This document shows, one piece after another, positions 5,820 through 50,226 of a DNA stretch of 64,000 nucleotides. How positions within the stretch are numbered: the stretch's first letter is position 1; every line of letters starts with the position of its first letter. The translations under genes and the position numbers were made by a program. The notes below the pieces were generated by a model. That model saw only the letters and a program-made list of their open reading frames with translations, ran no database searches and had not been told where the DNA came from. Origin of the DNA: Burkholderiales bacterium (GTDB taxonomy: Bacteria; Pseudomonadota; Gammaproteobacteria; Burkholderiales; Burkholderiaceae_C); NCBI GenBank assembly GCA_040007475.1, contig JBDTVC010000002.1:4921-68920 (forward strand). Reading direction: 5' to 3'.

Positions 5820-5825
5820 GACAAC

Positions 5826-8625: not shown

Positions 8626-8667
8626 GCCGCGCGCCGACCCCAGCAGTGCCGCCCGCGGAGCCCGACC

Positions 8668-10341: not shown

Positions 10342-10342
10342 A

Positions 10343-11448: not shown

Positions 11449-11460
11449 GCGCAGGCGGGG

Positions 11461-12066: not shown

Positions 12067-12152
12067 GGGGTGTCGCTCCGGGTGAGTATCGATGGATTGT
12101 TGCGCATTCCGCGTGCGAGACTGTGCGCCTTCCCTTCGCGCAGATCGGGGTC

Positions 12153-13604: not shown

Positions 13605-13652
13605 GCAACGCGGCCGGGGCACCATCGCCAAGTCATAGGAACAAGGGAGACA

Positions 13653-14246: not shown

Positions 14247-14271
14247 GAACTAGTCTCCTTCGGGTTTCGCA

Positions 14272-14290
14272 GGCGGATGCGACATCCGCC
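14272..14290 (-). terminator. Stem-loop after the UPF0261 gene (possible terminator or mRNA stabiliser; no U-tract)
   Basis: GGCGGATG-CGA-CATCCGCC, an 8-bp perfect stem lying between the stop at 14306 and the DJ-1 start at 14246. Confidence 0.3.
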
Positions 14291-14305
14291 CGCTCGGGTG
14301 GTCGG

Positions 14306-30641: not shown

Positions 30642-31514
30642 CTACCCGAACCGCAGCGCCATCACGCCGGCGACGATCACCCCGGTGCCGACCGCGCGCT
30701 GCGCGCCGAAGCGTTCCTTCAGCAGCACCGTGCCGAGCACGGCGGCGAACAGCACCGAAGTCTCGCGCAGCGCGGCGACCGATGCGACCGGTGCACGCGT
30801 CATCGCCCACAGCGCGATCGCGTACGAGCCGATCGAGGCACTGCCGCCCAGCATCGCCACCGGCCAGCGCGCACGCGCGTAGCGCATGACTTCGCGCCGG
30901 CCCTCGCGCGAGCGGCGCAGCCACACGATCAGTGGATAGGCGATGCCGTCGAGCACGAAGAGCAGCATCACGTAGCGCAGCGCGCCGTGATCGTCGACGA
31001 CGCTGGCCCGCACGCCGCGGCCATCGACGATGGTGTAGAGCGCGATGATCGCAGCGTTGCTGAACGCGAACATCAGGGCCTTGCCGTGATGCAAAGCCTC
31101 GCCCGGATGCGCCAGCCCGACGAGTGCCACGCCAAGCGTGATGCCGGCGATGCCCAGCCACGCGACCAGCGTGGGCGCCTCGCCGATGAAGGCGCCGCTG
31201 GCCAGCGCGACCAGCATCGGCGCGAAGCCGCGCATGATCGGGTAGGTCAGGCCGAGCTCACCGTGCTGGTAGGCGCCGACCAATGCGATGTAGTAGCCGA
31301 TGTGGATCACGAGCGATGCCGCGATGAACGGCCATGCCTTCTCGGGCGGCGGGCCGAACCACAGCATGAAGGGCAGAGCGACGACGGCGCCGAGGAAGTG
31401 CACGAGGGCGGTGTCGAGTGCCTTGTCGTTGCCGGATTTGATCAGCGCGTTCCACGAGGCGTGCAGCAGGGCGCCGAACAGGACCGCCAGGACGATCGGC
31501 CAGGTCAGCGCCAT
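30642..31514 (-). CDS. EamA/DMT-family transporter
   Basis: About 290 aa and 10 TM, with two EamA repeats. Start MALTWPIVLAVLFGALLHASWNALIK (Met81 of the track ORF). Its ATG shares one nt with the upstream stop (TGATG). Confidence 0.8.
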   Translation of the reverse strand: MALTWPIVLAVLFGALLHASWNALIKSGNDKALDTALVHFLGAVVALPFMLWFGPPPEKAWPFIAASLVIHIGYYIALVGAYQHGELGLTYPIMRGFAPMLVALASGAFIGEAPTLVAWLGIAGITLGVALVGLAHPGEALHHGKALMFAFSNAAIIALYTIVDGRGVRASVVDDHGALRYVMLLFVLDGIAYPLIVWLRRSREGRREVMRYARARWPVAMLGGSASIGSYAIALWAMTRAPVASVAALRETSVLFAAVLGTVLLKERFGAQRAVGTGVIVAGVMALRFG

Positions 31515-32068
31515 CACGCTCCTGGGGTCAGCGTGCAGCGCGCCGCGCGGCCGAGGAAGTGGGAGAGCGGGGGCGTGGCCAGTTCGGCCTGCTTCGCCAG
31601 GTCGTCCCACTGCCGCAGCATCACCGCATTGCGCGCGCTGGGCAGCGCGATGAAGGCACCGGCCTGCTCGGCGCTGAACACGCCGCCTTGCAGCGCGAGG
31701 CTGCGTTTCGAGTCGTCCGACAGCTTCGCGTGGTAGCCGGGGTTGGCCTGGCACAGGTAGAGCTTCGCGTCGACGTGCAGCTTGATCGCATCGAGCACCG
31801 CGTCGGGGAACAGGCCGCGCAGGAACGGCAGCGCGAAGTACTGGTGCGTATCGTCGATGCCGCGCAGTGAAGGCGTCTCACCCTGATCGTTCAGCAGATG
31901 CCCGAGATCGTGCAGCAGGCAGGCGGTGATCAGCTCGTCGTCGGCACCCGATTGCTCGGCCAGGTGCGCCGTCTGCAGCGCGTGCTCCAGCTGCGTGACC
32001 GGCTCGCCGCTGTACTGGCTGGTGCCGTGGCGCGCGAAGAGGAGTTCGATGTCGGCGATGGAAAGCAT
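31514..32068 (-). CDS. HD-domain protein of the phosphonate-operon-associated PhnZ-like clade (putative mixed-valent di-iron oxygenase)
   Basis: 184 aa. GEPVTQLEHALQTAHLAEQSGADDELITACLLHDLGHLL closely resembles the PhnZ core (QLEH...HDLGH). It sits in a phnA/phnY operon. Confidence 0.75.
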   Translation of the reverse strand: MLSIADIELLFARHGTSQYSGEPVTQLEHALQTAHLAEQSGADDELITACLLHDLGHLLNDQGETPSLRGIDDTHQYFALPFLRGLFPDAVLDAIKLHVDAKLYLCQANPGYHAKLSDDSKRSLALQGGVFSAEQAGAFIALPSARNAVMLRQWDDLAKQAELATPPLSHFLGRAARCTLTPGA

Positions 32069-32073
32069 GGCGG

Positions 32074-33750
32074 TCAGCGATTCACTTCGTCGGGCGGCAG
32101 CGGCGCGAGCTGCGAGTGGCGGATTCGCGTCTTGCTCAGGGCGCCGGCCGATTCGAGGATCGGGTAGGCGATCGAGCAGATGTGCGAGTTGATGCGTTTG
32201 AGGTCGCTGATCAGGTCGATGTGAAGCGAGCTGGTCTCGATGCTCTGCGCCGTGTTGTCCTGCAGCCGGCCGATGTGGCTGGCGGCGTACTCGTGCTCGA
32301 GGTCACGGAAGCGCGCCTTCTCTTCGAGCAGCTTCTGCGCATCGCGCACATGGCCGTCGAGGAACACGCTCATTCCGAGCCGCAGGTTCGACATCAGCCG
32401 CTCGTGCAGGTGCACGATCTCGGCCATGCCGGCATCCGAGAAGCTGCGCGCCTTGCGGATCTTCTTGTCCTCGATGTCCTGGATCACGCGCTCGATGATG
32501 TCGCCGATCTGCTCCATGTTGATCGTGAACGAGACGATGTCGGTCCAGCGCCGGCTCTCCTCCTTCGATAGCGCCTCGCCCGAGATCTGGGTCAGGTAGA
32601 ACTTGATCGCCGAGTACAGCTCGTCGACCGTGTCGTCCATCTTGCGCAGCTGCTCGGCCAGCGCGAGGTCGTTGTGCTTGAGCACTGGCAGGATGCCGCG
32701 CATCATGGTTTCGACGATGTCGGCCTGGTGCAGTGCCTCACGTGCCGCGCAGGTGATCGCCAGCGACGGCGTGGCGAGCGCAGATGGGTCGAGGTGGCGC
32801 GGGCGGGCCATGTCGGCCGACAGCCGCGGCTCTTTCAGCGCGCGCTCGACGGTGCGTCCGACCAGCCCGGTGAAGCTGATGAACACCAGCGCCAGCGCCA
32901 CGTTGAAGCCGAGGTGGAAGAACACGACCTGCTGGTGCACATCCGGCACCAGCTGTCGCAGCGCGATGTGGACTTGCGGCATCAAGGGGATCGCGCCGAC
33001 CGCACCGACCGCCTTGAAGATCAGGTTGCCCATCGGCAGCCGCCGCACCTGCGGCGAGGCTCCGCTGGTCGCGATCATCGCGAGCAGGCCGCTGCCGAGG
33101 TTGGCGCCGAGCACCAGGCCGAGCGCGACCGGCACGGGGAGCAGGCCGGAACTCGCGAGCGTGGCGGTCAGCAGCACGATCGCCAGGCTCGAGTACGAGA
33201 ACACTGTGAGCACCGCACCGACGACGATGTCGAGCAGGATCTCGTTCGGCAGCGCGACGAGCAGCGCGCGCACCGCGGGCGATTCGGTCAGCGGGCGTGT
33301 GGCGCCGACGATCAGCTGCAGCGCGAGGGTGATCAGCCCGAGCCCGATCAGCACGCGGCCGATGCGGCCGGCGACGGTGTCTTGCCGCGAGATGAACATC
33401 ACGACGCCGGTGAAGATCAGCAGCGGCGACAGCCATGACAGGTCGAACGAGAACACGACCGCCATCAGGGCTGTGCCCACGTCGGCGCCCAGAATGACCG
33501 CCAGCGCGGCGGCGGTCGCGACCAGGCCCTTGCCAACGAACGACGCGACGATCAGGCAAGTGGCTGTGCTCGATTGCACGACGGTCGTGACGCCCAGGCC
33601 TGCGACGAGCGCGGTGAAACGGTTGCTGAAGCTCTTGGCGAGGACGCTGCGCAGGCTTTCACCGAAGACGCGCAGCACGCCGGTGCGGACGATGTGCGTG
33701 CCCCAGACGAGCAGAGCGATGGCGGCGAGCAGGTTGAGAAGGTGGATCAT
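32074..33750 (-). CDS. Na+/phosphate cotransporter-family protein with C-terminal PhoU-like domain (NptA/YjbB type)
   Basis: 558 aa. The N-terminal half is polytopic and contains the duplicated SSTATCLI-type motif. The C-terminal half is helical and PhoU-like (MDDTVDELYSAIKFYL). Confidence 0.85.
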   Translation of the reverse strand: MIHLLNLLAAIALLVWGTHIVRTGVLRVFGESLRSVLAKSFSNRFTALVAGLGVTTVVQSSTATCLIVASFVGKGLVATAAALAVILGADVGTALMAVVFSFDLSWLSPLLIFTGVVMFISRQDTVAGRIGRVLIGLGLITLALQLIVGATRPLTESPAVRALLVALPNEILLDIVVGAVLTVFSYSSLAIVLLTATLASSGLLPVPVALGLVLGANLGSGLLAMIATSGASPQVRRLPMGNLIFKAVGAVGAIPLMPQVHIALRQLVPDVHQQVVFFHLGFNVALALVFISFTGLVGRTVERALKEPRLSADMARPRHLDPSALATPSLAITCAAREALHQADIVETMMRGILPVLKHNDLALAEQLRKMDDTVDELYSAIKFYLTQISGEALSKEESRRWTDIVSFTINMEQIGDIIERVIQDIEDKKIRKARSFSDAGMAEIVHLHERLMSNLRLGMSVFLDGHVRDAQKLLEEKARFRDLEHEYAASHIGRLQDNTAQSIETSSLHIDLISDLKRINSHICSIAYPILESAGALSKTRIRHSQLAPLPPDEVNR

Positions 33751-33759
33751 CGAGTCAGG

Positions 33760-35202
33760 TCAGGCCCAGGGCAACGAATAGGTCTTGGTATTCGTGAAGC
33801 TCTTCATCGCTTCCTGGACGCCTTCCTTGTACCCCAATCCCGAGTCCTTGATGCCGCCGAAGGGTGTCAATTCCAAACGGTAGCCGGGCACCTCGCGCAC
33901 ATTGACCGTGCCGACCTGAAGCTCCGAAACGAACCGGCTGATGTAGTCGAGGCGGTTCGTGCACACGGCCGACGACAGACCGTAGGCGGTCCCGTTGCTG
34001 ATGCGGATCGCCTCGTCGATGCACGCGAAGGTGATGATCGGCGAGATGGGGCCGAAGGTCTCCTGCATCGCGACGGTCATGTCGGGGCGCACGCGATCGA
34101 TCACGGTGGGTGAGTACAGCGCGCCTTGCCGCCGGTTGCCGACAAGCAGGCGCGCGCCTTGCGCGATCGCCTCATCGACGCGCGACTCGAACAGCCGCGC
34201 CGCTTCCTCGTCGATCACCGTGCCCATCTCGTTCTTCAGGTCGCTCGGGTCGCCGTGCGACCAGGCTTTCGTCTTCTCGACCACCAGGTCGGTGAAGCGT
34301 GCAGCCACAGCCTCGTGCACCAGCATCCGCTTCACCGCGGTGCAGCGCTGACCCGAGTTCTTGTACGAGCCTTGCACCGCGAGCGTCGAGGCCTCGTCGA
34401 GGTCGGCGTCCTCCATCACGATGATCGGGTCGTTGCCGCCAAGCTCGAGCACCATGCGCTTGTAGCCGGCGGTCTTCGCGATGTACTTGCCAATCGCCAC
34501 GCCGCCGGTGAAGGTGACGAGGTCGACATCGGCGTTCGTGATCAGCTCGTCGGCGATCTCGCGCGGGTCGCCGGTCACGACCGAGAGCATCTCCGGCGGC
34601 AGGCCGGCCTCGTACAGCAGATCGGCGAAGAGCAGGGCCGACAGCGGCACCTTCTCGGAGGGTTTCAGCACCATCCGGTTGTTGGTCGCGATCGACGGCA
34701 CGACCTTGTGCGCAACCTGGTTCATCGGGTGGTTGAATGGCGTGATCGCGGTGATCACGCCGAGCAGGGGATCGCGCTGCGTGTAGACGCGGCGCTTCTT
34801 GCCGTGGGGCGTGAGGTCGCACGAGAAGATCTGACCGTCGTCCTTCAGGCACTCGTTGGCGCCGAACACCAGCACGTCGGCAACGCGGCCGGCTTCGTAG
34901 GTCGCATCCTTCAGGCTCAGGCCGGCCTCGGCGCTGATCAGCGCGGCGATCTGCGCGGTGCGCTCGCGCACGAGCAGCGCGGTCTTGTTCAGGATGTTCG
35001 AGCGCTCGAAGCGCGTCAGCGCGGCCTTGTAGGCCTTGCCGATCGCGAACGCCCGGCGCACGTCGTCGAGCGTGGCCTTGGGCACGCTGGCGATCGGCTG
35101 GTTCGTGAACGGATTGAAGACGACGATGCAGCGATCGCCGATGCGGTCCGTGCCGACCGTTTCGCCGGCTAATCTCATCCCGTGATTCTGGATCGCGTTC
35201 AT
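33760..35202 (-). CDS. phnY: Aldehyde dehydrogenase, predicted phosphonoacetaldehyde dehydrogenase
   Basis: ALDH motifs ELGGNDP and catalytic Cys GQRCTAVKR; 480 aa. Lies 4 nt downstream of the phosphonoacetate hydrolase gene. Substrate assignment is by context. Confidence 0.75.
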   Translation of the reverse strand: MNAIQNHGMRLAGETVGTDRIGDRCIVVFNPFTNQPIASVPKATLDDVRRAFAIGKAYKAALTRFERSNILNKTALLVRERTAQIAALISAEAGLSLKDATYEAGRVADVLVFGANECLKDDGQIFSCDLTPHGKKRRVYTQRDPLLGVITAITPFNHPMNQVAHKVVPSIATNNRMVLKPSEKVPLSALLFADLLYEAGLPPEMLSVVTGDPREIADELITNADVDLVTFTGGVAIGKYIAKTAGYKRMVLELGGNDPIIVMEDADLDEASTLAVQGSYKNSGQRCTAVKRMLVHEAVAARFTDLVVEKTKAWSHGDPSDLKNEMGTVIDEEAARLFESRVDEAIAQGARLLVGNRRQGALYSPTVIDRVRPDMTVAMQETFGPISPIITFACIDEAIRISNGTAYGLSSAVCTNRLDYISRFVSELQVGTVNVREVPGYRLELTPFGGIKDSGLGYKEGVQEAMKSFTNTKTYSLPWA

Positions 35203-35206
35203 TGCG

Positions 35207-37279
<2,073 letters not shown>

Positions 37280-37330: not shown

Positions 37331-37346
37331 GGGCACAGCGCTTGCA
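37331..37346 (+). promoter_or_regulatory. Sigma54 (RpoN) promoter of the phnS operon
   Basis: GGGCAC-AGCGC-TTGCA compared with consensus TGGCAC-N5-TTGCA. The GG (37332-3) and GC (37344-5) have the canonical 12-nt register. It lies 36 nt upstream of the phnS ATG, with AGGAGA as the RBS in between. Confidence 0.7.
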
Positions 37347-37381: not shown

Positions 37382-38431
37382 ATGAATCTGGGTACCTTCA
37401 AGCCGCTGTTCGCGGTGCTGGCCATGGTGTCGGGTATGGCGGTTACCACCGCGGCCTTCGCGCAGAAGACGCAGCTCACCGTGTACACCGCGCTCGAGAC
37501 CGATCAGCTCAAGGCCTACGAGGCCGGCTTCACCAAGGTCAACCCCGACATCGAGATCAAGTGGGTGCGTGACTCCACTGGCGTGATCACCGCCAAGCTG
37601 CTGGCCGAGAAGGCGAACCCCCAGGCCGATGTGGTGATGGGTGTGGCCGCGTCCAGCCTCGCGCTGCTCGACACGAACGGCATGCTGATCCCGTACGCGC
37701 CGCTGAATCTCGACGGCATCATGAGCCAGTACCGTGACAAGAAGAACCCGCCGGCGTGGTTCGGCATGGACGTCTGGGGCGCGACCGTCTGCTTCAACAC
37801 CGTCGAGGCGCAGAAGAAGAACATCCCGAAGCCCGAGACCTGGAAAGACCTGACCAAGCCGGTCTACAAGGGCCAGATCGTGATGCCGAACCCGGCCTCG
37901 TCGGGCACCGGCTTCTTCGACGTGAGCGCGTGGCTCACGCTCTGGGGCGACGACAACGGCAAGGGCGGCGGCTGGAAGTTCATGGACGCGCTGCACGAGA
38001 ACATCGCGCAGTACACCCACTCGGGTTCGAAGCCCTGCAACATGGCGGCGACCGGCGAGTACGTGCTCGGCATCTCGTTCGAGTACCGCGGCAACACCAA
38101 CAAGGCCAAAGGCGCGCCGATCGACCTGGTGTTCCCGAAGGAGGGCCTGGGCTGGGACCTGGAAGCCTTCGCGATCCATGCCGGCACCAAGAAGCTCGCC
38201 GCGGCGAAGAAGCTCGCCGATTGGGCCTCGAGCAAGGACGCGATGAAGCTCTACGGCAAGAACTTCGCGATCACCGCGATCCCCGGCGTCGCCGAGCCGC
38301 TGAAGAACGTGCCGGCCGACTACGAAGCGCGTCTCGTGAAGATGGACTTCGCGACCACCGCGAAGAACCGCGAGCGGGTCTTGGCTGAGTGGAACAAGCG
38401 TTACGACACCAAGAGCGAAGCGAAGAAGTGA
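37382..38431 (+). CDS. phnS: 2-aminoethylphosphonate-type ABC transporter substrate-binding protein
   Basis: Signal peptide MNLGTFKPLFAVLAMVSGMAVTTAAFA; 349 aa. An Fe3+/spermidine-like SBP fold of the phnS2 type, followed by a matching ATPase and a fused permease. Confidence 0.8.
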   Translation: MNLGTFKPLFAVLAMVSGMAVTTAAFAQKTQLTVYTALETDQLKAYEAGFTKVNPDIEIKWVRDSTGVITAKLLAEKANPQADVVMGVAASSLALLDTNGMLIPYAPLNLDGIMSQYRDKKNPPAWFGMDVWGATVCFNTVEAQKKNIPKPETWKDLTKPVYKGQIVMPNPASSGTGFFDVSAWLTLWGDDNGKGGGWKFMDALHENIAQYTHSGSKPCNMAATGEYVLGISFEYRGNTNKAKGAPIDLVFPKEGLGWDLEAFAIHAGTKKLAAAKKLADWASSKDAMKLYGKNFAITAIPGVAEPLKNVPADYEARLVKMDFATTAKNRERVLAEWNKRYDTKSEAKK

Positions 38432-38452: not shown

Positions 38453-38520
38453 GCCCGAGCGCCCGGCCGCCCGAAGCCGGGCGAGACCCCCTTGGGGGGT
38501 GGTCGCTGTATTCGGCGACC
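38453..38520 (-). repeat. REP-like three-hairpin repeat, copy D (inverted orientation) inside the phnS-phnT spacer
   Basis: GCCCG-AGCGCCCGGCCGCCCGAAGC-CGGGC, then ACCCCC-TTG-GGGGGT, then GGTCGC-TGTATTCG-GCGACC. The same three modules as copies A to C, in reverse order and orientation. Confidence 0.7.
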
Positions 38521-38530
38521 GGGGGCTGAC

Positions 38531-39583
<1,053 letters not shown>

Positions 39584-39603: not shown

Positions 39604-41322
39604 GTGTCCGCCGTCCTGACTTCGCCCGTGGCCGCGCTGCGCCAGCGCGCGCACTGGACCGACCGCATCGCGCACCTCGCGTTGCTGCTCGTCGTGCTGG
39701 CACTCGTGGTGTTTCTCGCACTGCCGCTGGCAAGCATCCTCGTCAAGGCGCTGCAGAGCAGCGATGGTGCGTTCGTCGGGTTGGTCAACTTCACGAGCTA
39801 CCTGGCGTCGCCGTCGCTGCTGACGTCGCTGTGGCACAGCGTGTGGATCTCGGCCGTCGTCACGGTCGTCACGCTGCCGCTGGCCTTCGGCTTCGCCTAC
39901 GCGCTGTCGCGCAGCTGCATGCCGTTCAAGGGGCTCTTTCGCACGATCGCGTTGATTCCGCTGCTGGCGCCGTCGCTCCTGTCGGCGCTGTCGCTGATCT
40001 ACTGGTTCGGCAACCAGGGGCTGGCGCGCGGGCTGATCCAGCGCCTGGGCTTCGAGAACATCTATGGCGCGCCGGGCATCGTCTTGGCCGAATGCTTCGC
40101 GGTGTTCCCGCACGTGCTGATGATCCTGATCACCGCGTTGTCGCTCGCCGACGCGCGGTTGTACGAAGCGGCGAACGCGCTGGGCACCGGCACGCGCCGC
40201 AAGTTCTTCACGATCACGCTGCCGGGCGCGAAGTACGGGCTGATTTCGGCCGCGTTGGTCGGGTTCACGCTGGTGATGACGGACTTCGGCATCCCGAAAG
40301 TGATCGGCGGCAACTTCAACATGCTCGCCACCGACGTGTTCAAGCTCGTGATCGGCCAGCAGGACTTCCAGCGCGGCGCCGTCGTCGGCCTGCTGCTGCT
40401 GACGCCGGCGCTGCTCACTTTCGGCATCGACTGGCTGGTGCAGCGAAAGCAGACGGCGATGCTGAGCGCGCGCGCGGTGCCGCTCAGGCCGAAGCCGTCG
40501 CGCGGGTTCGACGCGCTGATGCTCGGCTACGTCGGCCTCGTCAGCGCGCTGATGCTGGCGATGCTCGGCATGGCCGTCTTCGCCTCGTTCGCGACCTACT
40601 GGCCCTACAACCTGGCGCCGAGCTGGAAGCACTACACGATGGGCTTCGTCGACGCCGAGGTCGGCGAGGCCTTTCTGAACAGCCTGAAGCTCGCCGCCGG
40701 AACGGCGTTCTTCGGCACCATCGTCGTCTTCGTCGGCGCCTACATGCTCGAGAAGACCCGCGGCCTCGACGCGATCCGCCCGTTGGTGCGCCTGCTCGCG
40801 ATGCTGCCGATGGCGGTGCCGGGGCTGGTGCTCGGCCTCGGCTACATCTTCTTCTTCAACGCGCCCGGCAATCCGCTGAACGGTCTCTACCAGACGCTGA
40901 CGCTGCTCGTGATCTGCACCATCGTCCACTTCTACACGACCGGCCACCTGACGGCGGTGACGGCGCTGAAGGCGCTCGACGCGGAGTTCGAATCGGTCTC
41001 GGCCTCGCTGAAGGTGCCGTTCTTCAAGACCTTCTGGCGCGTCACGCTGCCGATCTGCACGCCGACCTTGCTCGACATCGCGCGCTACTTCTTCATCAAC
41101 GCGATGACGACGATCTCGGCGGTGGTCTTCTTGTACTCACCCTCGACCAAGGTCGCGTCGATCGCGATCCTGAACCTCGACGAAGCCGGCGAGGCCGGCG
41201 CCGCCGCGGCGTGCGCGGTACTCATCACGGCCGGTTCGACAGTCGTGACGCTGCTGTTCATCGCCCTGGGCTGGTGGGTGGACAAGCGGACTCAGGCCTG
41301 GCGCAACACGGCCACCCGATAG
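39604..41322 (+). CDS. phnU: AEP-type ABC transporter permease (fused double permease)
   Basis: About 572 aa with about 12 TM and two permease modules. There is no in-frame ATG near the 5' end, so GTG at 39604 (20 nt after the phnT stop) was chosen. The start is uncertain. Confidence 0.8.
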   Translation: MSAVLTSPVAALRQRAHWTDRIAHLALLLVVLALVVFLALPLASILVKALQSSDGAFVGLVNFTSYLASPSLLTSLWHSVWISAVVTVVTLPLAFGFAYALSRSCMPFKGLFRTIALIPLLAPSLLSALSLIYWFGNQGLARGLIQRLGFENIYGAPGIVLAECFAVFPHVLMILITALSLADARLYEAANALGTGTRRKFFTITLPGAKYGLISAALVGFTLVMTDFGIPKVIGGNFNMLATDVFKLVIGQQDFQRGAVVGLLLLTPALLTFGIDWLVQRKQTAMLSARAVPLRPKPSRGFDALMLGYVGLVSALMLAMLGMAVFASFATYWPYNLAPSWKHYTMGFVDAEVGEAFLNSLKLAAGTAFFGTIVVFVGAYMLEKTRGLDAIRPLVRLLAMLPMAVPGLVLGLGYIFFFNAPGNPLNGLYQTLTLLVICTIVHFYTTGHLTAVTALKALDAEFESVSASLKVPFFKTFWRVTLPICTPTLLDIARYFFINAMTTISAVVFLYSPSTKVASIAILNLDEAGEAGAAAACAVLITAGSTVVTLLFIALGWWVDKRTQAWRNTATR

Positions 41323-41332: not shown

Positions 41333-42133
41333 ATGACCCACGAACGATCCGACCTGCGACTGGCCGTCGCGCAGCAGCCGATGGAATGGACCACCGAGCG
41401 CAACGTGTTGCACATGATCACGGCGCTCGAGCTGGCGGCGGCACAGGGCGCGCAGCTCTGCCTGTTCCCCGAACTCGCGCTGACCGGGTTCCACCGGCAG
41501 GTTCGCGAGCAGGCGCGACCGGAGATCGTCGGGCCGGCGCTGCGGCGCGTGCGCGCGGCCTGCCGCGATGCCCGCGTCGCCAGCCTGATCGGGCTGCCGA
41601 CGTTCGGTGCCGATGGCGCGGTGTTGAACAGCTACGCGTTGGTCGACGCGGAGGGTGCCGTGGGCGCGACGATCCACAAGAACGGGCTGACGGCGGCCGA
41701 GCTGACCTTCTTCGCGGCCGGCACCGAGCGGCCGCTGACGCGCTTCGCCGGGCGCAATTGCACGACCGTGATGTGCCGCGAGATCGAGGACGTCGATGCG
41801 ATCGCAGCGCAGCTGGCCGATGAATCGGTTCAGCTCGTCTTCTGGCCGTCGATCGTCGGCTACCCGCCGGGCACGATCGCCGAGCCGGAGCGCGCCGTGC
41901 AGGGCCTGGGTTACCGCCAGCGCGCGGGCGAGTTCGCGCGGCGCTTCAACGCACACCTCGTGCAATGCAACTGGCCGCACGCGCTCAACACGCCGGAGCG
42001 CAACTACCAGGGCGAGAGCAAGGCCTACGGGCCCGATGGCGAGGTCCTGCTGACGTTGCCGCGCGACGAGGCCGGGCTGGCCGTCTTCGATCTCAGCGCG
42101 CGTGATTTTCAATGGACGCCGATGCCGGCGTGA
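41333..42133 (+). CDS. Carbon-nitrogen hydrolase (nitrilase-superfamily amidase)
   Basis: 266 aa. Candidate Glu-Lys-Cys triad in [16 protein letters not shown] and VMCREIED. Confidence 0.8.
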
Positions 42134-42152: not shown

Positions 42153-43256
42153 ATGGACCGCGACGCCATCCTGCTGACCCCCGGCCCGCTGACGACCACC
42201 TTGCGCACCAAGCTCGCGATGCTGCGCGACTGGGGGTCGTGGGACACCGACTTCATCAAAGTCACCGCCGAGCTGCGGCGCCAGCTGCTTGCGATCGTGC
42301 ATGGCGAGGCCTCGCACACGGTCGTGCCCTTGCAAGGCAGCGGTACCTTCTCGGTCGAGGCGGCCGTCGCGACCGTGGTGCCTCGCGACGGTCACATGCT
42401 GGTGCTCGACAACGGCGCGTACTGCAAGCGGCTGGGCAAGCTCGCGACGCTGATGGGCCGGCGCACGACGATCATGGAGCACGCCGAGGACCAGGCCGTG
42501 TCGGCGCCCGCGCTGGACGCCAAGCTGAGCGAAGACCCGAGCATCACCCACGTCGGCTTCATCCACTGCGAGACCGGCACCGGCGTGCTGAACCCGCTGC
42601 AGGCGGTCAGCGAGGTCTGCGCGCGCCACGGCAAGGGGCTGATCATCGATGCGATGAGCTCGTTCGCCGCGCTGCCGATCGATGCGCGCGAGGTTCGGTT
42701 CGATGCGCTCGTGGCGGCCAGCGGCAAGTGCCTGGAGGGCGTGCCGGGCATGGGCTTCGTGTTCCTGCGCAAGGACATCCTGGCCGGTTGCGAGGGCCAA
42801 TCGCACTCGCTGGCGATGGACCTGTTCGACCAGCATGCCTATATGGAGAAGACCGGCCAGTGGCGCTTCACCCCGCCGACGCACGTGGTGGCGGCGCTGG
42901 CCGAGGCGCTGCGCCAGTACGAGGAGGAGGGCGGCCAGACCGCGCGCCTGGCGCGCTACACCGACAACTGCCGCACGCTGATCGACGGGATGCAGGCGCT
43001 GGGCTTCAAGCCGTTCCTGCCGGCGGCGCTGCAGGCGCCGATCATCGTGACGTTCCACGCCCCGGCCGATCGCGCCTACGAGTTCCGACCCTTCTACGAA
43101 GCGGCCAAGCAACGAGGCTTCATCCTGTACCCGGGTAAGCTGACGCAGGTCGAGACCTTTCGCGTCGGCTGCATCGGCGCGATCGGACGCAACGAGATGC
43201 AGCAGGCCGTGAACGCGGTCTCCGATTCGATGCGCGCGCTCGGCATCACCACCTGA
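42153..43256 (+). CDS. phnW: 2-aminoethylphosphonate:pyruvate aminotransferase
   Basis: [34 protein letters not shown] is the characteristic PhnW N-terminus; class-V aminotransferase, 367 aa. AGGAGA is the RBS. Confidence 0.9.
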
Positions 43257-43266: not shown

Positions 43267-44637
43267 ATGGCACAGAAGGAACATCCGGCACTTGCCGCCG
43301 TCCGCAAGTCGGGCACCGGCAAGGTCAAGGTCGCGGTCAGCGACATCGACGGGATCCTGCGTGGCAAGTACCTCCACATCGACAAGTTCCTCGGCGCCGC
43401 GGAGCCGCACCCGAACGGCGGCTTCGGCTTCTGCGACGTGGTGTTCGGCTGGGACGCGAACGACAACTGCTACGACAACGCGACGCTGACCGGCTGGCAG
43501 CACGGCTTCCCGGATGCGCTGGCGCGGCTCGATCTCGGCACGCACCGCCACGTGCCGTGGGACGACGGCGTGCCGATGTTCCTTGGCGAGTTCGTCAACG
43601 GCGACGGCAGCCCCTCGCCGATCTGCCCGCGCCAGACGCTCAAGCGTGTGCTCAAGCGCGCCGGGAAGCTCGGCGTGCTGCCGATGGCCGGCATGGAGTT
43701 CGAGTGGTTCAACTTCAGTGAAACGCCGCAGAGCTGGGCCAGCAAGCGCGGCGTCGGTCCGGAGCCGATCACGCCGGGCATGTTCGGCTATTCACTGCTG
43801 CGCATGAACCACAAGCGCGAATTCTTCAAGGCGCTGATGGACGAGATGCCGCTGTTCGGCGTGCCCATCGAAGGCCTGCATACCGAGACCGGGCCCGGTG
43901 TCTACGAAGTGGCCATCGCGTTCAGCGAGGCGCTCGAGCAGGCCGACCGTGCGATCCTGTTCAAGACCGGCGCGAAGGAGATCGGCGCGCGCTTCGGCGT
44001 GATGCCCAGCTTCATGGCGAAGTGGAACCAGCAGCTGCCGGGCTGCTCGGGGCACATCCACCAGAGCCTGTCGGACGGCAAGACGAATCTGTTCTTCGAC
44101 GCGAAGTCGCCGCGCAAGATGAGCAAGCTGTTCGAGAGCTACCTCGCGGGTCAGGTCGCATGCCTGATGGAGATGGCGCCGATGTTCTGGCCGACGATCA
44201 ACAGCTACAAGCGGCTGGTCGACGGCTTCTGGGCACCGGTCAAGCCGACCTGGGGCATCGACAACCGCACGGCGAGCTTTCGCGTGATCGCCGGCAGCCC
44301 GAAGGCCACGCGTCTCGAGACGCGCTGCCCTGGTGCCGACGTGAACCCGTACCTCGCGATGGCCGCGGTGATCGCCGCCGGCCTGCACGGTGTCGAGAAG
44401 GGCCTGAAGCTCACCGCGCCGCCGATCACCGGCACCAATGGCGGGGCAGAGCACATCCCGCGCGCGCCGCGCACGCTGATCGAGACGACGATCAATTTCA
44501 AGCAGTCGACCATCGCCCGCGACTGGTTCGGCGACGACTTCGTCGACCACTTCGCGGCCACGCGCGAGTGGGAGTGGCGGCAGTGGCTGGACGGCGTGAC
44601 CGACTGGGAACTGAAGCGCTACTTCGAGATCATCTGA
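43267..44637 (+). CDS. Glutamine-synthetase-family ligase (predicted gamma-glutamyl-amine synthetase, PuuA/GlnA-like)
   Basis: 456 aa with GS catalytic-domain strings GMEFEWF, HTETGPGVYEVA, GCSGHIHQSL, NSYKRL and NRTASFRV. It lacks the GlnA adenylylation loop seen in the true glnA at 53704. Confidence 0.8.
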   Translation: MAQKEHPALAAVRKSGTGKVKVAVSDIDGILRGKYLHIDKFLGAAEPHPNGGFGFCDVVFGWDANDNCYDNATLTGWQHGFPDALARLDLGTHRHVPWDDGVPMFLGEFVNGDGSPSPICPRQTLKRVLKRAGKLGVLPMAGMEFEWFNFSETPQSWASKRGVGPEPITPGMFGYSLLRMNHKREFFKALMDEMPLFGVPIEGLHTETGPGVYEVAIAFSEALEQADRAILFKTGAKEIGARFGVMPSFMAKWNQQLPGCSGHIHQSLSDGKTNLFFDAKSPRKMSKLFESYLAGQVACLMEMAPMFWPTINSYKRLVDGFWAPVKPTWGIDNRTASFRVIAGSPKATRLETRCPGADVNPYLAMAAVIAAGLHGVEKGLKLTAPPITGTNGGAEHIPRAPRTLIETTINFKQSTIARDWFGDDFVDHFAATREWEWRQWLDGVTDWELKRYFEII

Positions 44638-46220
44638 TGAATGCGTGGGTCACCCGGATCGTTGCCCTGGCCTTGTGCGCCGCCGCAGGCACCGCGAACG
44701 CGGTCACGCTGCGAATCGCCAGTGCGTTCGACCCGCAGACGATGGACCCGCACGCGATCGCGCTGCTGTACCAGACGCGCGTCTCGGCGCAGGTCTACGA
44801 GTCGCTGCTCAATCGTGACGAACGGTTCCAGCTGGAGCCCTCGCTTGCGCTGTCGTGGCAGGCGGTGAGCCCGACCCTGTGGCGCTTCAAGCTGCGGCCC
44901 GGCGTGTTTTTCCACGACGGCACGCCGTTCACGGCCGATGATGCGGTGTTCTCGTTCGACCGCGCGATGGCGCCGCCCTCGCAGCGCTCGTTCCAGCTCA
45001 AAGGCGTGAAGGCGGTCCGCAAGGTCGACCTGCTGACGATCGAGATCGACCTCGAGGCGCCCGATTCGGTGCTGCCCGAGAAACTCACGCAGCTCGGCAT
45101 GGTGAGCAAGGCCTGGTGCGTGAAGCACGGCGTCGAGAAGGCCCAGGACTTCAACGGCAAGCAGGAGACCTTCGCGGTGCGCAACGCCAACGGCACCGGC
45201 CCGTTCGCGCTCGACCGCTTCGAGCCGGACGTGCGGACCGTGCTCAAGCGCAACCCGCGCTGGTGGGGTGGCCGTGAGCAGGGCGCCGACAAGCGCAACG
45301 GCAATCTCGACGAGGTCACGCTGGTCGCGATCCGCTCCGACGCCACGCGCATTGCCGCGCTGATCTCGGGCGAGATCGACCTGGTGCTGGACCCGCCGGT
45401 GCAGGATGTCGAGCGCCTGAAGGGCGAGTCGGCGATCAAGCTGCAGCAGATCACCGACCTCGGCCAGCAGTACCTCGCGCTGGACGTCGGTCGCGACGAG
45501 CTGACCGACAGCGACGTGAAGGGCAAGAACCCGTTCAGGGACCTGCGCGTGCGCCGGGCGATCTACCACGCGTTGAACATGCCGCTCCTGACTCAGAAGG
45601 TCTTGCGCGGCCTGGGTGTGCCGACCGGTGCGTTCCTGTCGCCCCGCGTCGACGGCTCGCCGCCGGAGCTCGACAAGCGATTGCCTTACGACGTGGTGGA
45701 GGCGAAGGCGCTGCTCACAGAAGCCGGGTATCCGAACGGCTTCGCGATCACGCTGGATTGCGTCAATGTGCCGTGGCGCGAGGCGGCCTGCCAGGCCATG
45801 GCCGCGATGCTGACGCAAGCCGGGATCCGCGCGACGATGCGCAGCGCGCCGACCAACCAGTTCTTCCCGAAGCTGACCGGCGCGACCGCGAGTTTCATGG
45901 AGTTCGGCTGGACGCCGAGCCCCGACGCGTGGGCATCGTTGAACGCGCTGTTCCGCACCTGGGACAAGTCGGGCGGCGGCACCTTCAACGGCGGCCGCTA
46001 CAGCAACGCGAAGCTCGACGCCTTGATCGACAATCTGCGCGTCGAGCCCGACCTGACCCGTCGCCGCGCGATGGTCGGCACCGTACTGCGGATGGTCGGC
46101 GACGACCTGCCGCTGATCCCGTTGTATCGCCGCACGCTGACCTGGGCGATGAGCAACAAGGTCAGCACCGTTCAATGGCCCAACGACTCGCCCGAGTTGC
46201 GCTGGGTTCGCCTCAAGTAA
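44637..46220 (+). CDS. Family-5 (peptide/opine/nickel-type) ABC substrate-binding protein, orphan
   Basis: Signal peptide MNAWVTRIVALALCAAAGTANA; 527 aa. The ATG shares one nt with the upstream TGA. No cognate permease or ATPase genes are adjacent. Confidence 0.8.
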   Translation: MNAWVTRIVALALCAAAGTANAVTLRIASAFDPQTMDPHAIALLYQTRVSAQVYESLLNRDERFQLEPSLALSWQAVSPTLWRFKLRPGVFFHDGTPFTADDAVFSFDRAMAPPSQRSFQLKGVKAVRKVDLLTIEIDLEAPDSVLPEKLTQLGMVSKAWCVKHGVEKAQDFNGKQETFAVRNANGTGPFALDRFEPDVRTVLKRNPRWWGGREQGADKRNGNLDEVTLVAIRSDATRIAALISGEIDLVLDPPVQDVERLKGESAIKLQQITDLGQQYLALDVGRDELTDSDVKGKNPFRDLRVRRAIYHALNMPLLTQKVLRGLGVPTGAFLSPRVDGSPPELDKRLPYDVVEAKALLTEAGYPNGFAITLDCVNVPWREAACQAMAAMLTQAGIRATMRSAPTNQFFPKLTGATASFMEFGWTPSPDAWASLNALFRTWDKSGGGTFNGGRYSNAKLDALIDNLRVEPDLTRRRAMVGTVLRMVGDDLPLIPLYRRTLTWAMSNKVSTVQWPNDSPELRWVRLK

Positions 46221-46233
46221 CCGGCTTCGCACC

Positions 46234-47373
46234 ATGAGCATCACCCGCTTCTCGTTCCCGACCATCATCCATTTCGGCGCCGGCGCGCGCGCGCTCGCCG
46301 GGCCGCACCTGAAGGACCTCGGGCTGCGCCGCCCGCTGATCGTCACCGACAAGGGCTTGGCCGCGCTGCCGCTGATGAAGGAGTTCGCTGCCGGCCTCGA
46401 TTCGGCCGGGCTCGCGGTGGCGGTGTACGGCGGCGTGTTCGGCAACCCGACCGGCAGCCAGGTGATGGGCGGTGCCGCGGCCTACAAGGCACACGAAGCG
46501 GACTGCGTGATCGGCGTGGGTGGCGGTGCTGCGCTCGATGTGGCCAAGGTCGTCGGCCTGCTGGCCACGCACCCCGGCGACGTGATGGAGTACGTCTGGG
46601 ATCACCCGCAGGTCCGCGCGATCGATCCGGCCATGTTGCCGTACTTCATCGCGCTGCCGACCACCTCGGGCACCGGCAGCGAGGTCGGCCGCAGCAGCGT
46701 GATCAGCGAGGAGGAGTCGCACGTCAAGCGCGTGATCTTCTCGCCGGCGATCCTTGCCAAGGTGGTGTTCGCCGACCCCGAACTCACGCTCGGCCTCCCG
46801 CCGGCCGTGACCGCGGCGACCGGCATGGACGCGCTCACGCACAACATCGAGAGCTACCTCTCGCCCGCGTACCACCCGCTGTGCGACGGCATCGCGCTCG
46901 AAGGCACGCGCATCGCCGCGCGTGCGCTGCTGACGGCGGTGCGCGAGCCGGGCAACGTGCAGGCGCGCGCCGACATGATGATGAGCTCGATGATGGGTGC
47001 GATCGCATTCCAGAAAGACCTGGGCGCGGTGCACTCGTGCGCGCATGCGCTCGGCACGGTGTGCGACCTGCACCACGGTCTGGCCAACGCGCTGATGATC
47101 GAGCCGGTGATGAGCTACAACCGCGAAGCGGTGCCGCACAAGTTCGCCGAACTCGCGCACGCTGTTGGCGTGTCGTCCGTGAGCGGCTTCGTGCCGTGGC
47201 TGGCACACCTGAAGCAACGGGTCGGTATCCCGCCAGGGCTGGCCGCTGCCGGTGTCAGGCGCGAGCAGATTCCGCGGTTGGTCGAGATCGCCACGCGGGA
47301 CATCTGCCACCAGACCAATCCGCGCCCCTGCGAGGCGGCCGATTTCGAGCGCTTCTTCAAGGAAGCGTACTGA
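46234..47373 (+). CDS. Group-III iron-containing alcohol dehydrogenase
   Basis: 379 aa with VIGVGGGAALDVAK and His-rich metal-site strings (HNIESY, HSCAHALG). Confidence 0.85.
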   Translation: MSITRFSFPTIIHFGAGARALAGPHLKDLGLRRPLIVTDKGLAALPLMKEFAAGLDSAGLAVAVYGGVFGNPTGSQVMGGAAAYKAHEADCVIGVGGGAALDVAKVVGLLATHPGDVMEYVWDHPQVRAIDPAMLPYFIALPTTSGTGSEVGRSSVISEEESHVKRVIFSPAILAKVVFADPELTLGLPPAVTAATGMDALTHNIESYLSPAYHPLCDGIALEGTRIAARALLTAVREPGNVQARADMMMSSMMGAIAFQKDLGAVHSCAHALGTVCDLHHGLANALMIEPVMSYNREAVPHKFAELAHAVGVSSVSGFVPWLAHLKQRVGIPPGLAAAGVRREQIPRLVEIATRDICHQTNPRPCEAADFERFFKEAY

Positions 47374-47374
47374 C

Positions 47375-48181
47375 ATGGCCAAGCCTCTCATCATCGGCAT
47401 CTCGGCGCGCATCCACCATCCGGTCGGGCCGGTCCGCGACCTCGGCGGCGTCTATGCCAAGACGCTGCACTACCTCGAACAATCGGTCGCGCACTGGGTG
47501 CTCGCGAAAGACGTGCTCGCGGTGATGATCCCCGCGATCGAGAGCCAGGGCCTGATCGAGCGGAGCGAGATGAGCCTGAGCTCGTACGCCGAGTACCTCG
47601 ATGGCCTGGTGTTGCAGGGCGGCGCCGACATCGCGCCGCAGAGCTACGGCGAGACGCCACTGCACGCCGACTGGGCTGGCGACGCGGTGCGCGACCGCTA
47701 CGAGATCGATCTGTTCAACGCCTTCGTGGCCGCCGGCAAGCCGGTGATCGGCATCTGCCGTGGCTGCCAGCTTATCAACGTGGCGCTGGGCGGCACGCTG
47801 TTCCAGGACATCCCGACACAGCTGCCTTCAGCCGTCTCGCACCGCGACACCTCGATGTACGAGCGCGCGCTCCACGACGTGAGCTTCGTCGCCGGCTCGA
47901 AGCTGGCCACGCTGTACCCGGGCAGGGCGCAATCGAAGATCAACACCATCCACCACCAGGCCGTGAAGGACCTGGGCCGTGACCTGGTGATCGAGGCGGT
48001 GGGCGTTCCCGACGGCGTGGTCGAGGCGATCCGCTGGCGCGGGCCGAGCTATGTGTTCGGGATGCAATGGCACCCCGAGTTCCTCGCGCTGGCCACGCTC
48101 GACCAGGCGCAGCTGGACGGGGGCCCGATCCTGAAGGACTTCCTCGACAACGCGCGTGCCTGCCGCGACGCAATGACCTGA
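47375..48181 (+). CDS. Gamma-glutamyl-gamma-aminobutyrate-hydrolase-like amidotransferase (peptidase C26, PuuD family)
   Basis: Begins MAKPLIIGISAR. Nucleophile Cys in GICRGCQLINVALGG and His in MQWHPEF. Starts 1 nt after the ADH stop. Confidence 0.85.
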   Translation: MAKPLIIGISARIHHPVGPVRDLGGVYAKTLHYLEQSVAHWVLAKDVLAVMIPAIESQGLIERSEMSLSSYAEYLDGLVLQGGADIAPQSYGETPLHADWAGDAVRDRYEIDLFNAFVAAGKPVIGICRGCQLINVALGGTLFQDIPTQLPSAVSHRDTSMYERALHDVSFVAGSKLATLYPGRAQSKINTIHHQAVKDLGRDLVIEAVGVPDGVVEAIRWRGPSYVFGMQWHPEFLALATLDQAQLDGGPILKDFLDNARACRDAMT

Positions 48182-48193
48182 CTCCACCTCACC

Positions 48194-49561
48194 ATGCTGA
48201 AGATCCACAACCCCGCCACCGGCGCGCTGATCGCCGAAGTCCCCGAGGCCACGCCGGAGATCGTCGCCGAGCGCTTCCGTGCCGCGCGCGCCGCGCAACC
48301 GGCGTGGTTCGCCACCCCGCTGGAGGCGCGGCTGCAGGTGATGCAGCGCTTCCGCGTCGCGGTGGCGGCCGAGGTCGAATCGCTGGCGTCCACGCTGACG
48401 GCCGAGGTCGGCAAGCCGATCCGGCAGTCGCGCAACGAGCTGAACGGCTTGCTCGGCCGCGTCGACTTCTTCCTGACGCAGGCGGCGGCCACCCTGGCGC
48501 CGCAGCAGGTGTTCGACGAAGGCGGCACGCGCGAGGTCATCAGCTTCGACCCGCTCGGCGTGATCGCGAACATCTCGGCCTGGAACTACCCGTACTTCGT
48601 CGGCGGCAACGTGTTCGTGCCGGCGTTGCTGGCCGGCAATGCGGTGCTGTACAAGCCTTCGGAGTTCGCCACGCTCACGGGCCTGCACATCGCGCGGCTG
48701 CTGCATGAGTCGGGCGTGCCGCTCGACATCTTCGTGCCGCTGGTCGGCCGCGGTGAAGTCGGCGCCGCGCTGCTCGCGCAGAATATCGACGGCGTGTTCT
48801 TCACCGGCTCTCATGCGACCGGCGCAAAGATCGCGCAGACCGTCGGCCCGCGCTTCATCAAGCTGCAGCTTGAACTCGGCGGCAAGGACCCGACCTACGT
48901 CGCCGAAGACGCCGATCCGAAGATCGCCGCCGAGTCGCTCGCCGACGGCGCGATGTACAACGCCGGCCAGAGCTGCTGTTCGGTCGAGCGCATCTACGTG
49001 CACGAAAGCATCCACGATGCCTTCGTCGACGCGTTCGTCGACACGGTGCGCGGCTTCAGGATGGGCAACCCGACCAGCGAGGAGACCTACATCGGCGCGA
49101 TCACGCGCGCGCCGCAACTCGACGTGCTCGACGCACAGGTCGCCGACGCGCAAGCCAAGGGCGCGACGCTGCGCACTGGCGGCCACCGAGCGGCGGGGCC
49201 AGGCAACTGGTTCGAGCCCACGGTGTTCACCGGCGTGAACCACACGATGGAGTTGATGCGCGAGGAGAGCTTCGGGCCGGTCATCGGCATCCAGAAGGTC
49301 GCCAGCGACGCCGAGGCTCTGGCGCTGATGAACGATACGCGCTACGGCCTGACGGCCGGCGTGTTCACGAAGGACGAGGCGAGAGCACGTGCGCTGCTCG
49401 CGAAGGTCAACGCTGGCAGCGTCTACTGGAACTGCTGCGACCGCGTCAGCCCGCGGCTGCCGTGGTCTGGGCACGGCGATTCGGGTGTCGGTCTGACCTT
49501 GTCCACGTTCGGCATCCAGACCTTCACGCGGCCGCGTGCGTGGCATCTGCGCCAACCGTGA
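48194..49561 (+). CDS. NAD(P)-dependent aldehyde dehydrogenase
   Basis: 455 aa with ELGGKDP and catalytic Cys GQSCCSVERIYV. Confidence 0.88.
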   Translation: MLKIHNPATGALIAEVPEATPEIVAERFRAARAAQPAWFATPLEARLQVMQRFRVAVAAEVESLASTLTAEVGKPIRQSRNELNGLLGRVDFFLTQAAATLAPQQVFDEGGTREVISFDPLGVIANISAWNYPYFVGGNVFVPALLAGNAVLYKPSEFATLTGLHIARLLHESGVPLDIFVPLVGRGEVGAALLAQNIDGVFFTGSHATGAKIAQTVGPRFIKLQLELGGKDPTYVAEDADPKIAAESLADGAMYNAGQSCCSVERIYVHESIHDAFVDAFVDTVRGFRMGNPTSEETYIGAITRAPQLDVLDAQVADAQAKGATLRTGGHRAAGPGNWFEPTVFTGVNHTMELMREESFGPVIGIQKVASDAEALALMNDTRYGLTAGVFTKDEARARALLAKVNAGSVYWNCCDRVSPRLPWSGHGDSGVGLTLSTFGIQTFTRPRAWHLRQP

Positions 49562-50226
49562 CGCGGCTGGCGCTGTTCGATCTCGACCACACGCTGTTGA
49601 CGGGCGACAGCGATGTGCTGTGGTGCGAATTCCTGATGGACGCCGGCGTGCTCGACCGTGCCGAGTTCGAGCCGCGCAATGCCGACATGGCGCGCCGTTA
49701 CGGCGACGGCAGCGTCAGCGCGGCGGACTTCTGCGATTTCTACGTGTCCACACTCGCCGGCCGCACGCTGAGTGAGTGGCGGCCATGGTGCGAGCGTTTC
49801 CTGAGCGAAGTGATCGCGCCGAGGATCCCCGCCTCGGCGCGTGCCCTGGTCGAGTCGCACCGCGAGCGCGGCGACCGGATCGTGATGACGACCGCGACGA
49901 ACCGGGTGCTCACCGAGCTGACGGCGCAGCACCTCGGCATCGACGACCTGCTCGCAACCGAGGTCGAAGTGATCGGCGGCCGCTGCAGCGGCCGCACCCG
50001 GGGAGTGCTGAACATGAGGGAAGGCAAGGTCGAACGGCTGAAGTCTTGGTTGGCCGATCAGGGATGGCCGGCCGACGCGCTGGCCGGTGCCGTGTTCTAC
50101 AGCGATTCGGCGAACGACCTGCCGCTGCTTCGCTCGGTCGGGCAGCCCATCGTCGTCGATCCTGACCCGCAACTGCGGCGGCACGCGGCGATGGCCGGAT
50201 GGTCACTTGTGGAATTGGCCCGCTGA
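49558..50226 (+). CDS. HAD-IB family phosphatase (SerB-like subfamily)
   Basis: The GTG start overlaps the ALDH stop (GTGA). Motif [10 protein letters not shown], motif with TATN, and late motif [11 protein letters not shown]. Confidence 0.75.

Follow-up and report, generated by a model that had tools for sequence, protein, structure and literature searches.

A divergent gamma-glutamylation module, probably for an amino alcohol, in a 2-aminoethylphosphonate operon of a Burkholderiales bacterium

The stretch of DNA analyzed here (the window) comprises 64,000 nucleotides from contig C2 of a Burkholderiales bacterium (JBDTVC010000002.1, positions 4,921 to 68,920; assembly GCA_040007475.1). At positions 43267-49561 it carries five co-oriented, tightly packed genes, assigned by Pfam to a glutamine synthetase (GS)-like ligase, a periplasmic family-5 solute-binding protein (SBP5), an iron-dependent alcohol dehydrogenase (Fe-ADH), a C26 hydrolase and an aldehyde dehydrogenase (ALDH). 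With a probability of around 0.6, the four enzymes would together process a small primary amino alcohol by gamma-glutamylation, ethanolamine being the likeliest substrate. The module is a divergent version of the published ethanolamine pathway: its ligase belongs to a separate clade (clade C), its hydrolase is of the C26 family, and it includes an orphan SBP5. It forms the downstream portion of a longer operon on the plus strand, which begins with phnS2-phnT2-phnU2, a C-N hydrolase gene and phnW, the phn genes serving import and transamination of 2-aminoethylphosphonate (AEP).

The combination of a ligase (PF00120), an Fe-ADH (PF00465), an ALDH (PF00171) and an amidohydrolase is that of a published pathway in which ethanolamine is turned into glycine via gamma-glutamyl intermediates, known from C. 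salexigens, A. tumefaciens, S. coelicolor (GlnA4, SCO1611-1615) and Phaeobacter sp. MED193 (eto operon, MED193_10026-10056) (PMC9397018 Table 2, PMC6529630, PMC10132767). In both cases the GS-like ligase, Fe-ADH and ALDH are clustered and followed in action by an amidohydrolase, an amino alcohol being turned into an amino acid under gamma-glutamyl protection. Differences are nonetheless clear, since the hydrolase of the published versions belongs to the FGase family (PF05013), found here in the loci of ligase clade A, whereas that of the window is of the C26 family (PF07722). Gene order is ligase-ADH-hydrolase-ALDH in the window and ligase-ALDH-ADH in the published operons, and the window lacks a TRAP transporter such as EtoX of Phaeobacter (PMC10132767), an Eat transporter and an RpiR regulator. 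Finally, the window ligase falls outside the clade of the characterized type, and its module is embedded in an AEP operon under the regulator PhnR, together with a HAD-IB phosphatase.

Every biochemical step is inferred from homology and gene context, and so are the nature of the amine and the function of the phosphatase. The ligase would join the gamma-carboxyl of glutamate to the amine at the expense of ATP, the Fe-ADH would oxidize the free alcohol end to an aldehyde, and the ALDH would oxidize this aldehyde further to an acid, namely gamma-Glu-Gly in the case of ethanolamine; the C26 hydrolase would then free glutamate and the amino acid. The amino-alcohol assignment is favored because relatives of the module carry ALDH and Fe-ADH, Eat-like or APC permeases, and EutA or EutBC neighbors. 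A sequence-only reading of this DNA had already predicted an amino-alcohol substrate, in agreement with the homology, the context and the match to the published pathway, and had rightly held that sequence does not reveal which amine is used. It missed that the pathway type is already published and that the module is part of an AEP operon.

Gene content and family placement of the module enzymes

The module and the phosphatase gene coupled to its end are as follows:

43267-44637, plus strand: GS-like gamma-glutamyl-amine ligase of clade C (PF00120, 296 bits)
44637-46220, plus strand: orphan periplasmic family-5 solute-binding protein, SBP_bac_5 (PF00496, 264 bits), with signal peptide MNAWVTRIVALALCAAAGTANA
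46234-47373, plus strand: group-III Fe-ADH, proposed gamma-glutamyl-amino-alcohol dehydrogenase (PF00465 and PF25137)
47375-48181, plus strand: C26 class-I amidotransferase-type (PuuD-type) hydrolase, proposed gamma-glutamyl-amino-acid hydrolase (PF07722, 173 bits)
48194-49561, plus strand: ALDH, proposed gamma-glutamyl-aminoaldehyde dehydrogenase (PF00171, 424 bits)
49558-50226, plus strand: HAD-IB phosphatase, histidinol-phosphatase paralogue (NF052360, 229 bits versus a cut-off of 280)

These genes are translationally coupled, with the ATG of the SBP5 gene sharing a base with the ligase stop codon, the hydrolase starting 1 base past the Fe-ADH stop, and the GTG start of the HAD-IB gene overlapping the ALDH stop codon as GTGA. 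At every junction from the C-N hydrolase to HAD-IB, neighboring genes overlap or are at most 20 nt apart, and a sequence scan detected no terminator signal above chance inside the operon. Catalytic motifs are intact in the four enzymes: ExE, HxE...E, GHIH, NSYKR and RxExR in the ligase, GICRG...WHPE with a complete Cys-His-Glu triad in the C26 hydrolase, ELGGK...GQSCC in the ALDH, and GGGA with the Asp/His metal ligands in the Fe-ADH.

The earlier labels of PuuA-, PuuC- and PuuD-like enzymes stand at the level of Pfam families and fall at that of NCBIfam equivalogs. The ligase scores below every equivalog cut-off, reaching 153 bits against the 650 of the PuuA model NF045547, and the hydrolase 77 bits against the 266 of the PuuD model NF008471, with which only the Pfam family C26 is common. 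Among the PDB matches of the hydrolase are Lin1909, the entries 7d4r/7d50/7d53 ('probable glutamine amidotransferase', which we take to be SpuA) and PuuD 6vtv. The reported absence of a PuuB-type FAD amine oxidase from the module agrees with the genome-wide profile search, in which PF01266 (DAO) has no match on contig C2. That of a GABA (gamma-aminobutyrate)-type transaminase holds for class III, PF00202 lacking any match on the same contig, yet a class-V transaminase, PhnW, is encoded immediately upstream. As had been described, a group-III Fe-ADH lies between the binding protein and the hydrolase.

A classical Puu-type diamine pathway, with its oxidase or transaminase encoded elsewhere, would have in common with the module the gamma-glutamyl protection of an amine, an ALDH step and a PuuD-type C26 hydrolase. 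The Pfam families common with PuuA, PuuC and PuuD, together with the DAO and class-III aminotransferase genes that the profile search finds elsewhere in the genome, speak in its favor. It is nonetheless extremely improbable: all three common enzymes are far below the Puu equivalog cut-offs, PuuB and PuuE are missing in the window, where the Fe-ADH would supply the aldehyde, and this Fe-ADH is constant in the module whatever the clade. Moreover, no DAO-type oxidase was found next to the module in ~100 loci examined, save for a DAO gene two genes away in genome G263. The genome also holds on contig C165 a separate polyamine-type cluster (3-782, 944-2182, 8110-9330 and 9389-10660) with two GS-like genes, a class-III aminotransferase and an ALDH, which shows that diamine and amino-alcohol gamma-glutamyl routes are kept separate.

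Phosphonoacetaldehyde reductases belong to the Fe-ADH family, which lends some ground to an alternative in which the genes do not form one pathway. The Fe-ADH would then convert 2-hydroxyethylphosphonate into phosphonoacetaldehyde, the ALDH would be a second phosphonoacetaldehyde or acetaldehyde dehydrogenase, and the ligase and C26 hydrolase would serve polyamines or other amines. The operon shared with phnW and a weak match of the Fe-ADH to the phosphonate-associated model Phn_Fe-ADH (TIGR03405, 146 bits) go in the same direction. On the contrary, this score is far below the cut-off of 423.7, and so is that of the module ALDH for the PhnY model TIGR03250 (222 bits versus 635.65); the ALDH is therefore not PhnY, of which a true copy is already present. 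Considering also that the Fe-ADH gene accompanies the ligase in genomes without phosphonate genes, that the four genes travel together without PhnW (in the window's order in G263 and G436), and that the polyamine-type cluster on contig C165 is separate, such a division of the module is highly improbable.

Another known system is the Ipu pathway of Pseudomonas sp. KIE171, in which a GS-like ligase and a hydrolase of glutamine amidotransferase (GATase) type reportedly handle a gamma-glutamyl amino-alcohol intermediate. There, a P450 is said to make the alcohol, and glutamate to be removed before oxidation; on the contrary, no P450 is encoded at the window locus.

The SBP5 gene is the sole one of its kind on the contig, and its best PDB matches are 5u4o and YliB/GsiB 1uqw. 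It is accessory, being present in 8 of 44 scorable related loci, and the interval between ligase and Fe-ADH seems to be a variable position of the module. In two other loci an Amidohydro_1 gene occurs between these genes, at the position of the window's SBP5 (L111, 8205-9509, minus strand; L110, 15692-16972, plus strand). In L111 it fills the gap directly, while in L110 it ends ~700 nt before the Fe-ADH but lies ~5 kb past the ligase; three open reading frames between ligase and amidohydrolase in L110, probably taken in wrong frames, had no Pfam match.

Ligase clades and distribution of the module

Relatives of the ligase were collected at 32-55% identity across a sample of 400 genomes of the class, and ALDH and Fe-ADH adjoin them in 16 of the 20 loci fetched. 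In the ligase tree, two rows of own-genome paralogues (longest open reading frames with absurd branch lengths) were disregarded, the three-clade structure being independent of them. The window ligase belongs to a separate clade C of Burkholderiales sequences on a long stem branch (0.6), with the sequence of G263 (55% identity) as sister. Clade A has TRAP, RpiR and FGase genes as neighbors, and clade B a class-I GATase, an APC permease or an M81 peptidase; both hydrolase type (FGase, class-I GATase, C26, M81) and transporter (TRAP, APC) are exchangeable among relatives. PDB entry 5dm3, presumably the C. salexigens enzyme, is matched with 599 bits by the clade-A (TRAP/FGase-type) ligase and with ~225 bits each by the window and clade-B ligases. 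Clades B and C have active-site motifs in common, including a Trp at the position of the GlnA flap Glu, which is Phe in clade A.

Within clade C conservation is tight. The ligase is 83-96% identical across the best 80 named-Burkholderiales loci, whose carriers include Rhizobacter, Piscinibacter, Rubrivivax, Ideonella, Polaromonas, Ramlibacter, Rhodoferax and others, and 67-87% identical in an even sample of the order. Thousands of near-identical proteins carry the annotation 'glutamine synthetase' only. The four enzymes recur in the window's order (ligase-ADH-C26-ALDH) in G263, where an Eat-like permease is added, and in G436, and in these two genomes PhnW was found neither near the module nor genome-wide. 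An Eat-like permease stands beside a module relative in L088, and APC permeases do so in L063 and L112.

In the even sample, which comprises 301 genomes of the order, 30 carry a clade-C ligase (taken as identity of at least 67%). Canonical EutB occurs in none of these 30 versus ~50 of the 271 others, and no EutB match was found in the window's genome, which is 90% complete. This lack of canonical eutB fits a replacement of ethanolamine function, and the clade-C module appears to stand in for eutBC in carrier genomes. PhnW above cut-off shows the reverse distribution (16/30 clade-C genomes versus 23/271 others), yet is absent from the remaining 14 and from five further genomes checked directly, among them the unpublished G404 (locus L011), on which no conclusion rests. 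In Rhodoferax/Albidiferax-type loci, PhnR (323 bits) and an APC permease are divergent from the ligase, and PhnW was not found in their genomes. In one genus, EutA and a fused EutB-EutC are encoded directly upstream of the clade-C ligase. Carriers without PhnW, APC/PhnR loci, EutBC neighbors and the missing canonical EutB argue that the module is an amino-alcohol unit of its own.

Some of these features might instead indicate another simple amino alcohol, such as 3-aminopropanol, 4-aminobutanol, serinol or alaninol, which would yield beta-alanine, GABA, serine or alanine, respectively. Clade C is separate and tightly conserved on its long stem, the flap residue differs from that of clade A, and the occurrence of an FGGY kinase with EutBC in one genus hints at an amino-diol. 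In addition, the best NCBIfam matches of the two dehydrogenases are C4 enzymes, namely 4-hydroxybutyrate dehydrogenase for the Fe-ADH (353 bits versus a cut-off of 500) and succinic-semialdehyde dehydrogenase for the ALDH. Both matches are nonetheless below cut-off and thus reflect family membership rather than specificity, while the clade-C genomes without canonical eutB and the Eat-like and APC permeases beside relatives point back to ethanolamine. A substrate of this other kind is regarded as unlikely.

Several neighborhoods depart from the common pattern. Locus L108 of G436 (5248-15763) encodes an FGGY-family kinase, EutA and a fused EutB-EutC (734 aa, with a divergent EutB of ~460 bits) upstream of ligase-ADH-C26-ALDH, and corresponds either to B12-dependent and B12-independent routes side by side or to an amino-diol pathway. 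EutB matches adjoin the ligase also in G644 and G678. A gene for FolD (methylene-tetrahydrofolate dehydrogenase/cyclohydrolase) adjoins the module in L114 of G613 (5148-6155, plus strand), and one for alanine dehydrogenase follows the ALDH in L023 (15596-16711, plus strand), from a Piscinibacter metagenome-assembled genome; they are weak hints of glycine/C1 and of alanine handling, respectively. In L115 of G424 (9096-12999), a clade-C ligase of 75% identity has neither ADH nor ALDH nearby; genes for a RuBisCO-like protein and for a metallophosphoesterase come next, and PhnW is 25 kb off. The clade-C ligase of G648 (C9, 116868-117878), 6.5 kb away from phnW, is probably encoded by a pseudogene, for it contains an in-frame TGA and matches only over residues 120-456.

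The phosphonate operon, its regulator and the HAD-IB phosphatase

Upstream of the module, and on the divergent arm (30642-36430, minus strand), the window contains:

42153-43256, plus strand: PhnW, AEP:pyruvate transaminase of class V (NF010006, 573 bits versus a cut-off of 296)
41333-42133, plus strand: accessory C-N hydrolase of the nitrilase superfamily, between phnU2 and phnW (PF00795, 74 bits)
37382-38431, 38492-39583 and ~39670-41322, plus strand: AEP ABC importer phnS2-phnT2-phnU2 (TIGR03261, 498 bits; TIGR03265, 510 bits; TIGR03262, 788 bits; all above cut-off)
37266-37277, no strand: candidate PhnR operator, the palindrome ATTGT-N2-ACAAT, read from the sequence
36433-37236, minus strand: PhnR, GntR-family regulator, divergent from the plus-strand operon (TIGR03338, 334 bits versus a cut-off of 271)
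35207-36430, minus strand: PhnA
33760-35202, minus strand: PhnY, the true copy (TIGR03250, 846 bits)
32074-33750, minus strand: Na/Pi transporter
31514-32068, minus strand: PhnZ-type HD-domain oxygenase (TIGR03276, 237 bits, above cut-off)
30642-31754, minus strand: EamA/DUF6 protein

Further profile matches on the divergent arm are to TIGR02335 (590 bits) and TIGR03340. With phnW, whose ATG at 42153 is preceded by the ribosome-binding site AGGAGA, directly upstream and PhnA and PhnY on the divergent arm, a complete PhnW-PhnY-PhnA route flanks the module, the ligase gene beginning 11 nt after the end of phnW. These flanking genes are bona fide, above-cut-off members of the known systems of AEP degradation (PhnW-PhnY-PhnA or PhnW-PhnX, with import of the AepSTU/PhnS2T2U2 type), and have both operon and regulator in common with the module. 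To our knowledge, a gamma-glutamyl step is part of no described AEP route. Surveys of recurrent genes in AEP clusters mention no GS-like ligase (PMC8154272, PMC10590968), and no GS-like or gamma-glutamyl component of such clusters is described in the literature searched.

The linkage is recurrent, as the string phnW-ligase-ADH-C26-ALDH-HAD-IB is found in most of the best 80 loci and the phosphonate genes are joined to the module in at least five arrangements. The module stands behind phnS2T2U2-phnW, behind phnR and phnW without a transporter, behind phnW-phnX (L024) or behind phnA-phnY-NaPi-HD (L110), or else phnW lies 5-7 kb away on the opposite strand (L114, G682, G648). In L024, PhnX (9139-9960, plus strand; 145 bits to 2iof) is encoded between phnW and the ligase, and the module is therefore fused also to the phosphonatase version of the AEP pathway. 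On the contrary, the C-N hydrolase gene was found in L005 only among 80 related loci and is, for this reason, a recent accessory.

A 75-77% identical PhnR adjoins the module even in genomes without PhnW. In most loci with PhnR, a palindrome similar to that of the window precedes the first gene on the plus strand, and ATTGTTAACAAT is found directly upstream of the ligase gene in L063 (~9891-9902) and L072 (~9895-9906). ATTGT-N2-ACAAT is kept also where nothing but a permease and the gamma-glutamyl module lies opposite PhnR, as in the Rhodoferax-type loci, and is probably the PhnR operator. The site beside permease and module raises the question of the PhnR effector. A sigma-54-like sequence, GGGCAC-N5-TTGCA, is present at 37331-37346, 36 nt before phnS2; sigma-54 control was rejected as a conserved feature, the strict motif recurring only in the closest loci, L003 and L004.

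This linkage would be best explained if the substrate were an amino alcohol of phosphonate metabolism itself, for instance (R)-1-hydroxy-2-AEP or an amino-hydroxyalkylphosphonate, the module then being an extra branch of AEP catabolism. The enrichment of PhnW in clade-C genomes, PhnR with the same candidate operator beside modules lacking PhnW, and a PhnZ-type HD oxygenase whose PhnY* partner was not reported by the sequence-only reading (no search being aimed at PhnY*) are all in line with it. However, PhnW is missing from nearly half of the clade-C genomes of the sample, and modules without it bear APC permeases or EutBC instead. The ADH and ALDH pair, in addition, needs a primary alcohol, which 1-hydroxy-AEP lacks, and we know of no natural phosphonate with both a primary alcohol and an amine. 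This substrate is thus considered decidedly unlikely. As regards the oxygenase, the PhnZ-type HD gene recurs in ~20 related loci.

The HAD-IB gene directly follows the ALDH gene in 30 of 35 PhnW-adjacent loci versus 0 of 8 loci without PhnW. The genome encodes three HAD-IB histidinol-phosphatase-like proteins, of which that of contig C65 is the only one above the cut-off of NF052360 (282 bits versus 280), and the module copy, at 229 bits, is by its sequence best described as a non-housekeeping paralogue of the amino-alcohol-phosphate phosphatase kind. HAD-IB enzymes of the histidinol-phosphatase type have beta-amino-alcohol phosphates as substrates, histidinol phosphate and phosphoserine among them, and phosphoethanolamine is the simplest compound of this class. 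In lipids and glycans of invertebrates and protists, AEP and phosphoethanolamine occur side by side as head groups (PMC4891362). The module HAD-IB is accordingly proposed as a putative amino-alcohol-phosphate (phosphoethanolamine) phosphatase, and this substrate type, together with the shared head-group occurrence of both compounds, suggests an operon that may handle AEP as well as phosphoethanolamine. A role of HAD-IB as substitute phosphonatase was discarded, as genomes with phnW, module and HAD-IB but without nearby phnA/phnY carry PhnA elsewhere or PhnX in the locus.

Weighing of the ethanolamine reading and biological meaning

Several points weigh against the preferred reading. The ligase is only ~33-37% identical to the clade of the characterized-type enzyme, and this low identity, together with the long stem branch of 0.6, means that amine specificity may have changed; no assayed enzyme of clade C or clade B was found in the literature searched. 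No ethanolamine transporter is encoded in the window, whose sole binding proteins are the AEP-type PhnS2 and the orphan SBP5 without assigned ligand. Phosphoethanolamine uptake and HAD-IB action on this compound are conjectural, control of ethanolamine use by a regulator of AEP type has no obvious rationale, and the co-occurrence counts derive from related genomes and overstate independence.

With these reservations, ethanolamine is kept as the preferred substrate, and the place of the module in the operon can be rationalized as follows. Probably co-transcribed under PhnR with the genes for AEP import and transamination, and with HAD-IB coupled at its end, the module would allow the operon to consume the two 2-aminoethyl head groups that (phosphono)lipids and glycans release. 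AEP would be processed by PhnW, PhnY and PhnA, whereas phosphoethanolamine would be dephosphorylated by HAD-IB to ethanolamine, which would then enter the module. More tentatively, the module may be a working part of the AEP regulon in Burkholderiales rather than a passenger, either (a) within a PhnR-controlled system for both 2-aminoethyl phospho(no) head groups, in which a recruited phosphatase feeds ethanolamine, or (b) for an unknown amino-alcohol phosphonate. Either form, if true, would constitute an undescribed branch of bacterial phosphonate and head-group mineralization. The literature searched describes the pathway type, but neither its repeated joining to AEP catabolism nor that to a recruited phosphatase.

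The gamma-glutamyl route provides B12-independent use of ethanolamine and is known from few organisms. Clade C is abundant in soil and freshwater Burkholderiales. These results allow the annotation of a large protein family to be corrected, and they propose a role, open to experiment, for a paralogue of histidinol-phosphatase. The repeated joining of the module to AEP genes suggests that AEP and (phospho)ethanolamine are treated as one resource, which, if so, would tie the turnover of phosphonates to that of phospholipid head groups in the cycling of nitrogen and phosphorus.

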